Virus record (IMG/VR): IMGVR_UViG_3300030390_002408
Direction: 5' to 3' (one strand)
Source of the DNA: a virus
DNA length: 64,000 bases
Both the position numbers and the translations under genes were made by a program. How positions within the stretch are numbered: the first letter of the stretch is position 1; every line of letters starts with the position of its first letter. Under the pieces are notes generated by a model, which was not told the origin of the DNA, made no database searches, and saw nothing but the letters and a program-made list of their open reading frames with translations. Of this stretch, positions 4,491 through 20,477 are shown in pieces.

Positions 4491-4910
4491 TTATTGTATT
4501 TTATAATATTCTTTTATACCTGTATCCAAAACACTATCAAAAGGAGTTGCCATCGTAGATAACAAGATTATGTTTTCATATCCATTATCTCTTGAATAAG
4601 GCTCATCAGTTTCAGGATCTATAGGTGTAGTTACTTCACCAGTTTCAGGATTAATATTATGTTTAGGTAAAGCTTCTCCATCAACATCGTATGAAATTTT
4701 ACCTTTTACAACTTCATATCCTGCAGTTACATCAGTAACTACTTCAATTTCACCTTCAATTTCAACATAAGTTTGTAGTCGTAAGTGAACTACAGCTTTT
4801 GGGGTTGGGTTTGAATCCATTTCTTCTTGTACTACTGCTGTATCCCTAATTAATCTTCTTTTAAGACCTGTTTTTGGGTCTGTTCCGTACTCGTAAATGT
4901 TTGCGTTCAT
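4491..4910 (-). CDS. Hypothetical acidic protein
   Basis: 139 aa ORF between fibre genes. Confidence 0.6.
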   Translation of the reverse strand: MNANIYEYGTDPKTGLKRRLIRDTAVVQEEMDSNPTPKAVVHLRLQTYVEIEGEIEVVTDVTAGYEVVKGKISYDVDGEALPKHNINPETGEVTTPIDPETDEPYSRDNGYENIILLSTMATPFDSVLDTGIKEYYKIQ

Positions 4911-4929
4911 TTTTATTTATTTATTTATT

Positions 4930-7900
4930 TTATCCTATTTTAATATTTCCAAAATCATCTGTAGTGTTTAGGTTTGATAAAGTTACATTTGTATTTATGG
5001 AGGTTGTAGCTCCATCAAATGTAGAATTAGCTACTTGAGTAGTTATTGCTGAAGTTGATGTAATATTATTAGCTCCTATATTATTAACTCTAAGGGAACA
5101 GTTTGTTAAAACTGTATCATTTCCACCTATTTGAACAGAGTGTCCTCCAACATTATTCCACTTTGATACAAATTCACAATGAGAAAATAATATTTTGAAT
5201 CCTGGATTAGAATTAAGGTTTGCTGCAATTCCTCCTTCACTTATTGCTGTTATTCTATTATATGAAAAACTTCTAGATGCTTGATTCCTAAAAACTTTAA
5301 TTGCATGATAACTCCCCAAATTCCTAACATACCCTTGTACACATTGTAGTGTATTTGACAAATTAAGACAAGGTAAGGTTGAAGAATTGTTTTCTGCTCT
5401 AAAATTAGATATTTCAGATGCACTGACAGTAACAGCATAATTATTACCAGTTATAGCTACAAAATCATGAGCTGAAGATGGACCAGATACTGCAATTCCA
5501 CTTACACTCTTAGCAACAAAGTTACTCAGTACTCCCCCACTTATAGCACTCCCACTATTACTTTCTACATAAAAACTTGTAGCTAAGACCCCAGTCTGAG
5601 TAGTTATACCGGATCCAGTTCCTTTAGCTAGTACTGTAAAGCCAGAAGCTTTAGCATTATTAGTTAAAAATAAAGCAGTTTGTGATGAACGGCCTATAAC
5701 CGTAAAGTTTCTAAAATTAGAATAAGACAATCTTACAGTGTTTAATGTAGCATTAGGTCCACTTTCAAAAATACTACCTCCAAAATCATACATATCTTCT
5801 AAATAACTACCTATTTGAAAGGTCATATAATTCTCATTATAAAAATACATTTTAGACATTTGTAAATTTCTTGTAGCTGTACCGTCATATTGAAGACATT
5901 TACCAGTTGTTCCATTTTCTCTTATTAAACTTCCATCTAATATAACAGTAGTTGTACCTGCAATTAACCCACCTACTGATAAACAATGTGTAGCATCAGC
6001 TTGGGTATTTTCAATCTTAAATCCGTTAAAATTTATAGTTAAATTCTTATAGTCGAAAGTTGCATCAATAATAATTCCAGCCGTGGTTGTAACATTACCA
6101 TATAAAGTAACAGTATTATAACTTCCAGCTGTTTTACAGGTATCTAATGCTGATTGTAAATTAGAATAAAAAGTAGGACTTCCATTATCTGAATCTCTCA
6201 CAACACCTATGACCCCATACCCTGCTGACATTGCTACCCATGCAGAACCATTATATCTATATAAAGCATTTAAAGTAGTATTAAATATAAGTAAATGAGT
6301 ATCAGGAGTTAAAATTGAATTCATTTGAGCTGTTGTCAAACGAGGCATTAACATACCTTCGGTTGTGGTTGTCATTTCTACTTTACCACCTAATTCTACA
6401 CCTGTTGATTTAATTAAGTGTTGAGGAGTTGTTGAATTCCAACCTAAAGCAAGAGAATTAGCAGTAGAATTTACTAATTTTTGTGTCTTATCAGCTTCAA
6501 CTCCATGACCAATTATACTTGCTCCACTAGCACCTGATTGAACCCAAGCACCTAACCCAACAGAAAATGGATTTGTAATATTATGTGCTCTACCTATTGC
6601 TGAACTATATTGCCCACTTAAAGTTCCTTCTGAACCAATCATAGATGTATAGTTTGCAGAAACAGTATTATCAACACCTAAAATTACTTGTTCATTTCCA
6701 CCTGAAGTATTATTTCCACTTCCTACTATATATCGATAATTACCTATACCTGTTAAAGTATTACTTCTACCAACAAGTCCAAAATAAAAACTTGTACTAT
6801 TTATAGAGTTAGAATGCCCTAATTGAAAACAGGTTGAAAAATCTGTATTAGTAATACTATTCCCAATCCCTAAATCAAAATACCCATCATTTGCAATTAT
6901 ACCATAAGTAGCACTATCAGCACTATTTCTGAATCTTACAATATACTCTGCCACATTATTACTTGTACTATTTTGAGCGATTAAATTGGTTTTTGATCCA
7001 CTAAAAGTCAAATTATTACTTCCAAAATCAACAACTCTATCTCCTGTTAAAACTCCATCAGCAGTATAAATTGTATCTGCTGAACCTGAAGCCGCAACAT
7101 AATCTACTACATACTCTTTATCAATTAAAGAACGATTAGTAAAATTAGCAGAATAATCATCATCATATTCAATTCCCTTTTTAGTTGTTCTATTATCCTT
7201 AAAAGTAATTGATGAAGATATATTAAAAGTTGAACCCCCTCCACCAGTTAAAAAAAGATAATCTGGATCTAAAATTAAAGCAGCCGAGTTACTCCCACTA
7301 GAATAAGTAAGATTTAAATTATCATTTCCTATAAATAAATTCCCATTCCCATTATTACCTGTAGCATTAAATTTACCTAAAGATATACCAGACTCATTAA
7401 GAGAAAGTTTTGAATTTTTAGAATTAGAAGTATTATAAAATCCTAAATCTATCGCCCCAGGAACAATATCTAATCTTGATTCCTCATTAATTGAAGGGGT
7501 TGAAGATTTTAGTTGGGCACTATTACTGGTAATATTATTAAATGATGTGGATGTACCATTTGTAACTAAATCTTTGGAATTGGAGAAAGTTCTTGAAAGT
7601 GTAGTAGTACTTGACCCACTAACAATACTCCCACTAATACTATTACTAAGAATAGAAAGTGATGAGGTATAATATAATTCACTTGGGTTAGTTATTGTAG
7701 TTAAACTTGAACTTGGAGTTATATGAAAGTTACTACTACTAACATTAAAGGTACTAGTATTCAAATTATAATCACTATTAATCTTCATTGTAGAAGAATT
7801 ACTAGCGTTATTATAAGATACTTGAAAGTATGCTTGATTTGCTTCGTATTTGGTTGTTGTAGTTGAAGTTGTATGAATAACATCTCTCCCTCCAGGATTA

Positions 7901-18245: not shown

Positions 18246-19025
18246 TTACTCTGCTGACATTGGCTCTGTGTAAAGGAAACCAACCTTATTCTTTTGATCT
18301 AAACTGAAAAACAATTTATTCATCTCACCACCACGTCTGTTTTTACTAAAGAAAATACATCTACCACCCTCAACAAATTTCATATGTCCCATTCCTGTTA
18401 GCATATGTTTGAATCTATTTGATCCTGCAAACTCACCACCTTTAGTTACTTGTTGGATGATCATGAATGAAGTATTTACACCGCTTGTGTTTTCAGCTTT
18501 GTTATGACGCTCTAAAATGTTTAAAACACGTGACTCAGCGTTTTTATTTGTACCACCATGGAAATCAACAATCGTTGTACAAACTTCAGCCATTGAATCG
18601 ATTAATACAACATCGTAACCTTCAGTTAATGTTGACTCAATTACTTGAATTGGATCATTTTCAATATAATCACCTAAGAATAAAATTGGTAACGCTCCAA
18701 ATTTAGGATATCTTTTAACGTAACCGTATAAATCAATTGAATTCATCTCACCTGAAATGAATAATACTTTAGCACCTTTAGCTTGTAAATCTGCTAGCAC
18801 GTCTAACATTACTGTAGATTTTCCAACTCCTGGATCTCCAACGAATGCATAATTGGTACCTTTCATTAACCCACCTTCACTTGAAAGCATTGAATCTAAT
18901 CTACCACCTGTTTTCATAGGAATAAATAAATTATCATCAAATGATAAATTATCCATTTTTACCAATTTTGGCATTACAAATTCAACTTTCTTACTTGGAC
19001 GACCTCTTTTAACCATATTTTTCAT
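18246..19025 (-). CDS. RadA/Sms-like RecA-family ATPase (ATPase domain only)
   Basis: Walker A GDPGVGKST, ISGE, Walker B VLIDS, QVTKGGEFAG, SKNR. Confidence 0.8.
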   Translation of the reverse strand: MKNMVKRGRPSKKVEFVMPKLVKMDNLSFDDNLFIPMKTGGRLDSMLSSEGGLMKGTNYAFVGDPGVGKSTVMLDVLADLQAKGAKVLFISGEMNSIDLYGYVKRYPKFGALPILFLGDYIENDPIQVIESTLTEGYDVVLIDSMAEVCTTIVDFHGGTNKNAESRVLNILERHNKAENTSGVNTSFMIIQQVTKGGEFAGSNRFKHMLTGMGHMKFVEGGRCIFFSKNRRGGEMNKLFFSLDQKNKVGFLYTEPMSAE

Positions 19026-19136: not shown

Positions 19137-19243
19137 AGTAAGAAAAGGTGGCCTGACTTGTAACCAGATCCGTACTAATTCTAGAACCCAAACACATAGC
19201 AAAACCATTTTGCTAGCAGGTTAATGTAGCACCTTTTATTACT
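19137..19243 (-). ncRNA. Candidate structured ncRNA (~107 nt)
   Basis: Closing stem AGTAATAAAAGGTG/CACCTTTTCTTACT, internal hairpin TAGCAAAA-TGG-TTTTGCTA, no ORF. Confidence 0.5.
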
Positions 19244-19258
19244 AGAAATTAATTAAAT

Positions 19259-19457
19259 AAACTCTCCAAGTCCTCCAAGTGGAATATCATGCCGTATGAC
19301 CATGCTTTACTATACGGTTTCAAGTCAGTTTAAAGCCTTTCCATCTACCTAACTTCAAAAGCGTTGCACCCTTGGTTGTGCCCTAATAGAGGAGGGTTGC
19401 CGATTTATTCACCCTAATTTGACCTATCACTTACTTATCCATTAGCTTGGAGAGTTT
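19259..19457 (-). ncRNA. Candidate multibranch ncRNA (199 nt)
   Basis: Perfect 12-bp closing stem AAACTCTCCAAG/CTTGGAGAGTTT. Internal helices AAGTG/CACTT, GGTCA/TGACT, AGGGT/ACCCT, GCAC/GTGC, CCGTAT/ATACGG. Confidence 0.6.
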
Positions 19458-19461
19458 AAAA

Positions 19462-19557
19462 TAGTAATAGTCGTATCAACTAGCATCGGTGCTTTCAAGT
19501 CTTCTAAGATACCTCTTATCTTGCGGAACCTCCCCGTAACCCTCTGCTATATTACTA
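19462..19557 (-). ncRNA. Candidate structured ncRNA (~96 nt)
   Basis: Closing TAGTAATA/TATTACTA, TAGCA/TGCTA, hairpin AAGATA-AGAGG-TATCTT. A boxA-like GTTCTTTAAA lies just upstream. Confidence 0.45.
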
Positions 19558-19592
19558 CTTATTTTCAATTATTTAAAGAACGTAATTAATTT

Positions 19593-19652
19593 TGTACCTA
19601 TCCCTGAATCGAACATGGGTCAGAACTAGTTCTCCTAGCAACCAGCATAGGC
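19593..19652 (-). ncRNA. tRNA-like element lacking D-stem and anticodon loop
   Basis: GCCTAT/ATAGGT acceptor-like stem, TGG loop, AGAACTAGTTCT mini-hairpin, T-arm with TTCGATT loop. Confidence 0.55.
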
Positions 19653-19654
19653 TA

Positions 19655-19723
19655 TTAATGAGGGGTTGGGATCGAACCAACTCGAAGGAACTGCATCTTC
19701 TTAAACCATAATTTCCTCATTAA
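19655..19723 (-). ncRNA. tRNA-like element lacking D-stem
   Basis: TTAATGAGG/CCTCATTAA stem, TATGGTTTAA loop, GAAG/CTTC arm, perfect T-arm GTTGG-TTCGATC-CCAAC. Confidence 0.6.
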
Positions 19724-19725
19724 CA

Positions 19726-19746
19726 TCAATACTTTCAATGAACTCT
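19726..19746 (-). promoter_or_regulatory. boxA-like antitermination element
   Basis: AGAGTTCATTGAAAGTATTG immediately precedes the RNA array. Similar sequences at ~19565-19585 and ~20142-20160. Confidence 0.45.
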
Positions 19747-20076: not shown

Positions 20077-20226
20077 TTAACCCCTCAACCCCAACACCGT
20101 AAATATACGATGAATATCTCGCTTCTCCAAATCTTTCTGCAATTATCTTCAATGAACTTTTTAAACCCGTCTAACCCCTCAACCTTACCCCGTAAATATA
20201 CGGTGAAACCCCCGGGAAGCCACATT
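20077..20226 (-). promoter_or_regulatory. Two tandem early promoters (20077-20152 and 20171-20226)
   Basis: Both carry CGTATATTTACGG followed by GGTTGAGGGGTTA. Confidence 0.75.
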
Positions 20227-20477
20227 CTCCCGCGGGGATCGCGTGGGGAGTTGTGAACCGTGGGGTGTTCACAATATATACTCTTTTCGTAGAGGAGAGT
20301 TTGGGGGCGCGGTGAAAAGGGGGTAATGTCCCCAGAACTCTACCCCATCCGCTCCACCACGTGTTATCACATACTATTTGACTATACATTGTGTTTAACA
20401 CATAACACTAATCGTTTAACACACTTCATCGCCCCTATTATTTAATTCGCATTATGACACTCATTTAACGTGGAAAA

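Follow-up and report, generated by a model that had tools for sequence, protein, structure and literature searches.

What are the two small tRNA-like units that lie side by side between two genes of a large marine phage, and what might they do? The phage is seen in part, as a window of 64 kb (the whole stretch of DNA analysed, IMG/VR record IMGVR_UViG_3300030390_002408), with genes for a family B DNA polymerase, GroEL, thymidylate synthase, UvsE and the QueC pathway and with a RadA-like protein that is matched at 100% on Tara Oceans and other marine contigs. The units, here called E1 and E2, lie in a gap of 731 nt, on the minus strand, with a 96-aa orphan gene on one side and the gene for the RadA/Sms-like ATPase (18246-19025, minus strand) on the other; the RNA array described below adjoins the latter gene in the relatives examined, and we treat it as context only. 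Two promoter-like motifs with a TATATTTAC core at 20200 and 20107 (20099-20200, minus strand) likely drive the 96-aa ORF and the RNA array, and we take them to be promoters of the Bacteroidota type. Promoter-like motifs of the TTTG-N20-TATATTTA type are repeated in the window and, assuming that they represent this promoter type, presumably point to a Bacteroidota host. Upstream of the tandem motifs the sequence is GC-rich and non-coding and contains small hairpins and repeats (20200-20460, minus strand); L050:4781-5190 in a related locus resembles it.

E1 (19654-19724) and E2 (19594-19652) are adjacent and built alike, from a closing helix, a TGG-containing loop, a short hairpin, a connector (GA or GAC) and a T-arm whose loop reads TTCGATC or TTCGATT. 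A previous, sequence-only reading had described two tandem units with a T-arm and a TGG loop between 19593 and 19723; this is borne out on the minus strand, where they are the sole such T-arm units in the window, and the span is right for the units except that the closing helix of E1 reaches 19724. The same reading saw no D-stem, and here it has to be corrected, as there are 3 bp in E1 and 2 bp, with a covarying inner pair, in E2 (4 bp in the distant homologue L194). Hand segmentation of seven sequences (six close versions and this homologue) gives a plan common to both units: closing helix, D hairpin with a 4-5 nt GG loop, 4-bp hairpin at the anticodon position, 2-3 nt connector and 5-bp T-arm.

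In E1, a 10-bp closing helix (19715-19724 with 19654-19663) is followed by a 3-nt linker, the mini D hairpin (19701-19711; 3 bp, loop UGGUU in the window), the anticodon-position hairpin (19684-19700; 4 bp and a variable 9-nt loop), the GA connector and the T-arm (19665-19681; 5 bp and TTCGATC), without a C74 signature (all features of both units are on the minus strand). Across variants its D loop is a 5-nt UGGNU, the variable base being U, A or G, and its D-stem is invariant save for a change from A-U to G-U in L194. E2 measures 58 nt to the discriminator and has a 6-bp acceptor-like stem (19647-19652 with 19596-19601), A73 at 19595 and C74 at 19594; its mini D hairpin (19638-19646) has 2 bp around UGGUU, its anticodon-position hairpin (19622-19635) 4 bp and a variable 6-nt loop, and its T-arm (19602-19618), preceded by GAC, 5 bp (one position being an A·G mismatch in the window copy) and the loop TTCGATT. 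Compared with the canonical 7 bp, the acceptor has 6 bp in E2 (7 in L194, after a 2-nt bulge) and about 4-10 bp in E1, and the top half of E2, with 6+5 bp, is one below the usual 12. The claim that the units have no anticodon loop stands in the functional sense, not in the literal one: a 4-bp hairpin occupies the position, and its loops, which differ among lineages, have 9 nt in E1 and 6 nt in E2, without the U33 and purine 37 that a canonical 7-nt loop has, so that neither unit should be able to decode.

T-loop motifs with a 4-5 bp stem occur only twice in the 64-kb window, in E1 and in E2. An architecture descriptor, composed after the units had been seen, likewise matches twice in the window, whereas 300 dinucleotide shuffles give a mean of 0.003 (one match in total). 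The folding energy of E1-E2 by itself is unremarkable (z about -0.7), and support for the pair therefore comes from motifs and comparison and not from folding energy. In the window copy of E2 the thermodynamic fold favours another hairpin and leaves the T-arm open, so that the E2 cloverleaf would depend on tertiary contacts; the unconstrained fold of E2 from L194 is a full four-armed cloverleaf. Two other hairpins considered for E2 were rejected: the CTAG/CTAG hairpin of minimum energy is disrupted in L042 and L104, and one shifted by 2 bases (4 bp and 9 nt) suits four variants but has a mismatch in the same two loci.

Related loci were gathered through neighbouring proteins and through the motif of a neighbouring RNA, and yielded six distinct close versions of the pair (the window, L113, L079, L078, L042 and L104). 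A distant homologue, L194:1354-1497, was found by covariance model (E 2.8e-6; 8e-8 with a refined model) in a locus whose RadA-like protein shares 69% identity with its L079 counterpart. Across the six close versions 97% of cells are paired and three pairs are doubly changed, a score equalled by 3 of 500 shuffles; a hand alignment adds a fourth double change among close variants, in the E1 T-stem, whose second pair passes from U-A to A-U via a U·U intermediate. With L194 included, double changes are found in 13 of 39 pairs, compared with at most two for slid controls, which is an upper view because the alignment was fitted to the model and the L194 row alone supplies most of the changes; the sample amounts to seven distinct sequences from about three lineages. 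One pair of the E1 anticodon-position stem is A-U, G-U or G-C among variants, the inner pair of the E2 D-stem is C-G, U-G or U-A, and the E2 anticodon-position hairpin of L194 is also 14 nt long, with one A-U swapped to U-A. The T-loop (TTCRA) and the GG of the D-loop are retained in all seven variants. Stems covary while loops drift, which upholds the earlier view of maintained elbow mimics as opposed to a decayed tRNA, and the comparison shows E1-E2 to be a selected double miniature cloverleaf that has the determinants of an elbow and no decoding loop.

Among standard tools ARAGORN, from which at most pseudo calls had been expected, makes no tRNA call on E1-E2, and Rfam has no relevant match at gathering thresholds or up to E 10 (including RF00005, tmRNA and mascRNA). 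Against annotated phages, blastn gives matches by chance only; exact E1 or E2 patterns have either no match in IMG/VR or two chance matches within coding sequence, and the E1 pattern is absent from GTDB genomes. The GTDB matches to an anchor in the neighbouring RNA-B that we inspected are coding chance matches, and some of the metagenome anchor matches may be likewise. No convincing match came from covariance models run on 10 IMG/VR records of related phages, on five annotated phage records (where the two classifiable matches are ordinary tRNAs) or, as a weak negative under strict filters, on 121 genomes of the family of a Flavobacterium MAG, and the distant RadA-like relatives L001-L026 have no E1-E2 cassette nearby. 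In the literature, which we covered incompletely, neither the E1-E2 family nor mascRNA-like RNAs in phages are reported. E1-E2 is a real, conserved phage tRNA mimic for which we found neither a catalogue entry nor a paper.

The gap that harbours it is an array of swappable non-coding cassettes with a boxA-like spacer between them. In the window this motif lies upstream (19733-19744) and downstream (19572-19581) of E1-E2, both on the minus strand, and it recurs between cassettes in relatives; its likeness to rrn boxA is our assumption, and five host-like genomes gave no confirmation of it. Three further cassettes on the same strand, all without an Rfam match, share the gap: RNA-A (19459-19560), a stem-closed, conserved and independently mobile element of ~100 nt (z -2.0) that is near-invariant in several lineages; RNA-B (19254-19457), which combines a long invariant closing stem with swappable inner domains and is found in dozens of marine phage loci, in up to three copies per array; and RNA-C (19137-19243), a branched, stem-closed element of ~105 nt followed by a U-rich run.

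All 26 complete copies, many of them from the same population, contain both E1 and E2, separated by a fixed distance. In four loci (L078, L079, L113 and L124) the cassette sits between two promoter-like sites with only a short hairpin beside it, and it is cleanly absent from L037-41, L089, L103 and L131. The close relatives L037-L041 have the same flanking genes and a different T-arm-ended RNA at the E1-E2 position, and L042-L045 have both RNAs. The suspicion that relatives might hold intact tRNAs at the site, as expected of simple pseudogenes, did not materialize: in every relative examined it is occupied by the same pair or by another non-coding cassette, never by a canonical tRNA, and tRNAs and a tmRNA are carried in the same array by relatives. 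Solo cassettes between promoter-like sites and clean absence in sister loci are more easily reconciled with a small RNA gene that is independent than with a cutting signal for neighbours; as far as its sequence tells, E1-E2 is such a gene, in which one miniature tRNA cloverleaf follows the other in head-to-tail orientation.

Other tRNA-like elements were encountered in these arrays. RNA-X (~145 nt, L042:3329-3474) terminates with a T-arm, an acceptor-like stem and A-C; also found in L037-L041, L078, L089, L103, L113 and L124, it is present either in place of E1-E2 or alongside it. RNA-Y, a T-arm-ended RNA of 120-150 nt, is present as diverged tandem copies in L079 (two copies, reverse strand), L104 and L131. 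Right after RNA-B, several loci (L055, L064, L076, L083, L095-L098, L100-L102 and L120) carry a tRNA-like gene whose acceptor stem and T-arm are constant and whose anticodon-arm region is hypervariable and differs widely in length. A related phage locus, L072, encodes a full tmRNA with a tag frame (266-672).

The ends of the two units differ. As had been noted, the window copy has neither an encoded CCA nor a G3·U70 pair. All 22 tRNA calls made by ARAGORN in the fetched loci, one of which (L091) is probably cellular, have C74 and almost none encodes CCA; since the true tRNA genes of the family also lack it, a missing CCA in E1-E2 is uninformative. E2 ends in A-C in every close version, and in U-C in L194 on the 7-bp register; this N73-C74 end is the signature of the family's true tRNA genes, and by its sequence E2 has the look of a tRNA end-maturation substrate. 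E1 has no C74 and its closing helix varies from about 10 bp to 4-5 bp, so that it may not be an enzyme substrate; it may instead form the 5' domain of one longer RNA or be freed by a cut at E2. In L194, E1-E2 lies 40 nt upstream of a gene for a tRNA nucleotidyltransferase-like protein of 248 aa (L194:1532-2278, directly behind the distant homologue), an adjacency seen in a single lineage and so far a coincidence; homologues of the protein are found in 338 annotated phage records, and the family is common in large phages.

Among known RNAs, the closest structural analogue is mascRNA, in which two G and the T-loop form a true elbow and which RNase P and RNase Z cleave (PMC11693755). Like mascRNA and menRNA, E2 is about 58 nt long, with a full T-arm and a CCA that is not encoded (PMC11693755). 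As in mascRNA, the D hairpin follows right after the acceptor strand with almost no linker and contains two G (9-11 nt in the phage units, 10-11 in mascRNA), and the arm at the anticodon position is of similar size (14 nt in E2, 15 in mascRNA). On the other hand, the acceptor of E2 has 6 instead of 7 bp, its source is a phage and not a vertebrate, there is no sequence match (Rfam, E 10), and E1-E2 is an obligate tandem pair with no constant long upstream RNA of the MALAT1/NEAT1 type to release. This is a case of convergent design, not of family membership; by analogy, E1-E2 would work like mascRNA in shape and probably also in processing. The T4 RNAs rnaC and rnaD (species 1 and 2) are likewise unexplained stable RNAs in a phage tRNA-type operon, and rnaC has a T-arm and an acceptor-like strand at its end; however, two long hairpins replace its small arms, rnaD has no T-loop, and neither is a miniature cloverleaf or resembles E1-E2 in sequence. 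The Y RNA YrlA (PMC4201824) is a tRNA-elbow mimic without an anticodon that is also found in phages, but its T arm precedes its D arm (a permuted order), one of its stems binds Ro60 and a Ro60 gene is adjacent to it. None of this applies to E1-E2, where the arms follow in the order D, anticodon-position arm, T and the flanking genes are those for the 96-aa orphan and the RadA-like ATPase. E1-E2 is a member of none of these groups, i.e. mascRNA, T4 rnaC/rnaD and Y RNAs, nor of the tmRNA TLD-only RNAs treated below.

What, then, could such an RNA do? The best reading of E1-E2, whose chances we judge to be about even, is that it is processed and, without decoding, serves as an elbow decoy for host proteins that bind tRNA. 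E1-E2 would be transcribed along with the stable-RNA array, and the GG would dock on the T-loop to give a tRNA elbow, as the structures of tRNA and mascRNA suggest. Owing to this elbow, the transcript would be handled by host tRNA maturation enzymes: RNase P would cut at or near the 5' end of E2, and its 3' end would be trimmed to A73-C74 before CCA is completed by a host or phage nucleotidyltransferase (for background on RNase P, 3' trimming and CCA completion, see PMC4919922 and PMC11693755). The product would be E2-CCA plus a free E1, or a single two-elbow RNA of ~130 nt, which could not decode and would probably not be alanylated. In the least secure step of this reading, the mature RNA would act in trans as an abundant decoy for host proteins that read the elbow or the top half of tRNA, for instance defence proteins that cleave or sense tRNAs. 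If so, E1-E2 would be an RNA-only counter-defence against tRNA-targeting immunity.

The elbows could instead act in cis, attracting RNase P and RNase Z to cut a polycistronic transcript, such that the cuts generate the upstream mRNA's 3' end together with the 5' end of the next segment, and the mini-RNAs are mere by-products. This is the established role of mascRNA for MALAT1 (PMC11693755; PMC4919922), and the position of the cassette, between a short ORF and three RNAs in the window and between an ORF and the nucleotidyltransferase gene in L194, would suit it. However, the neighbours on both sides differ among lineages, RNA-A and RNA-B exist without E1-E2 in L037-41, L050, L089 and L103, the solo cassettes of L078, L079, L113 and L124 have nothing but a short hairpin before the next promoter-like site, and a single unit would be enough for cutting, yet two are always retained. 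We consider cis punctuation unlikely on these grounds, and the previous suggestion of a processing signal that releases neighbouring RNAs is weakened, given that the neighbours vary and occur without E1-E2 and that the cassette stands alone in four locus types.

Fixed tandem spacing and the non-standard closing helix of E1 would also suit a structural or ligand module, in which a phage protein or another RNA of the array docks on the two elbows to form an RNP or RNA-RNA assembly, and bacterial Y RNAs use their tRNA-like module in this way (PMC4201824). Since no constant partner gene or RNA accompanies the cassette, and Ro60/TROVE is not among the top 25 Pfam families of the window ORFs, we find such a scaffold distinctly improbable.

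A decoy of a more specific kind, a mimic of the tmRNA tRNA-like domain (TLD) that titrates SmpB, had also been proposed, on the understanding that E1-E2 has the tmRNA layout. The segment of E1 around the GG does, by our assumption, approach the tmRNA D-loop in length and make-up. E2 carries a GAC connector before its T-arm, and the relative L072 encodes a full tmRNA. In common with the TLD of tmRNA and with the TLD-only RNA of mycobacteriophage DS6A (PMC4131195), to which such a titrating role would liken it, E1-E2 is a tRNA top half with GG and T-loop and without a decoding loop, is phage-encoded and, in E2, has this connector. The parallel fails in its details: G3·U70, which is fully conserved in tmRNA (PMC3985003), is absent from E2 in all variants (C3-G70 in this register) and from E1 in four of six, G·U being found only in L078 and L079; tmRNA G19, the SmpB contact (PMC8363625) five bases after the GG, corresponds to A in E1 and to U or A in E2; a mini D-stem exists; and there is neither a long helix 2 or tag frame nor a match to the Rfam tmRNA model. 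The proposal loses its footing with these differences, and we regard SmpB titration as very improbable. That the units are functionless relics of two ordinary tRNA genes, as the many odd tRNAs of related phages and a CAU in the E1 loop of L194 might suggest, is already largely refuted and hardly credible, given that the shrunken stems show compensatory changes, that the L194 phage retains this reduced geometry in spite of a RadA-like protein only 69% identical to that of L079, and that no relative has a canonical tRNA at the site.

Returning to the decoy in trans, one further locus bears on how widely such RNAs may have arisen. By a loose pattern scan of IMG/VR we found, in an unrelated GC-rich phage contig (L155:8702-8833, plus strand), two abutting miniature cloverleafs with the geometry of E1-E2 and a different sequence. 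These have a 7-8 bp acceptor, a 3-4 bp D-stem, an arm of 4 bp and 9 nt and a T-arm (fold z -2.7); the A-CCA of the first unit overlaps the start of the second, and ARAGORN and Rfam are silent. We take L155 as an analogue, its homology being unproven, and it suggests a recurring design rather than one family. As a tentative possibility, phages may have independently evolved mascRNA-like miniature cloverleafs in obligate tandem pairs, whose two-elbow RNA neutralises a host defence or quality-control protein that recognises tRNAs.

Unexplained stable RNAs in phage tRNA operons date from T4 species 1 and 2, and E1-E2 offers an easy test case for non-decoding tRNA mimics, since it is small, its structure is well defined by covariation, and its presence varies naturally among close relatives. 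It also suggests a convergent counterpart, in bacterial viruses, of the compact mascRNA fold known from the processing of vertebrate long RNAs. Smaller elements with a T-arm were seen as well: L093 (near 4905-4950, plus strand) and L114 contain a top-half minihelix made of a 7-bp stem, a 10-nt GG linker, a T-arm and A-C, and several unrelated phages (L135, L144, L158 and L160) share T-arm elements that lack annotation and combine an ATGG(A)TAAAGG loop with a short GC-rich hairpin.
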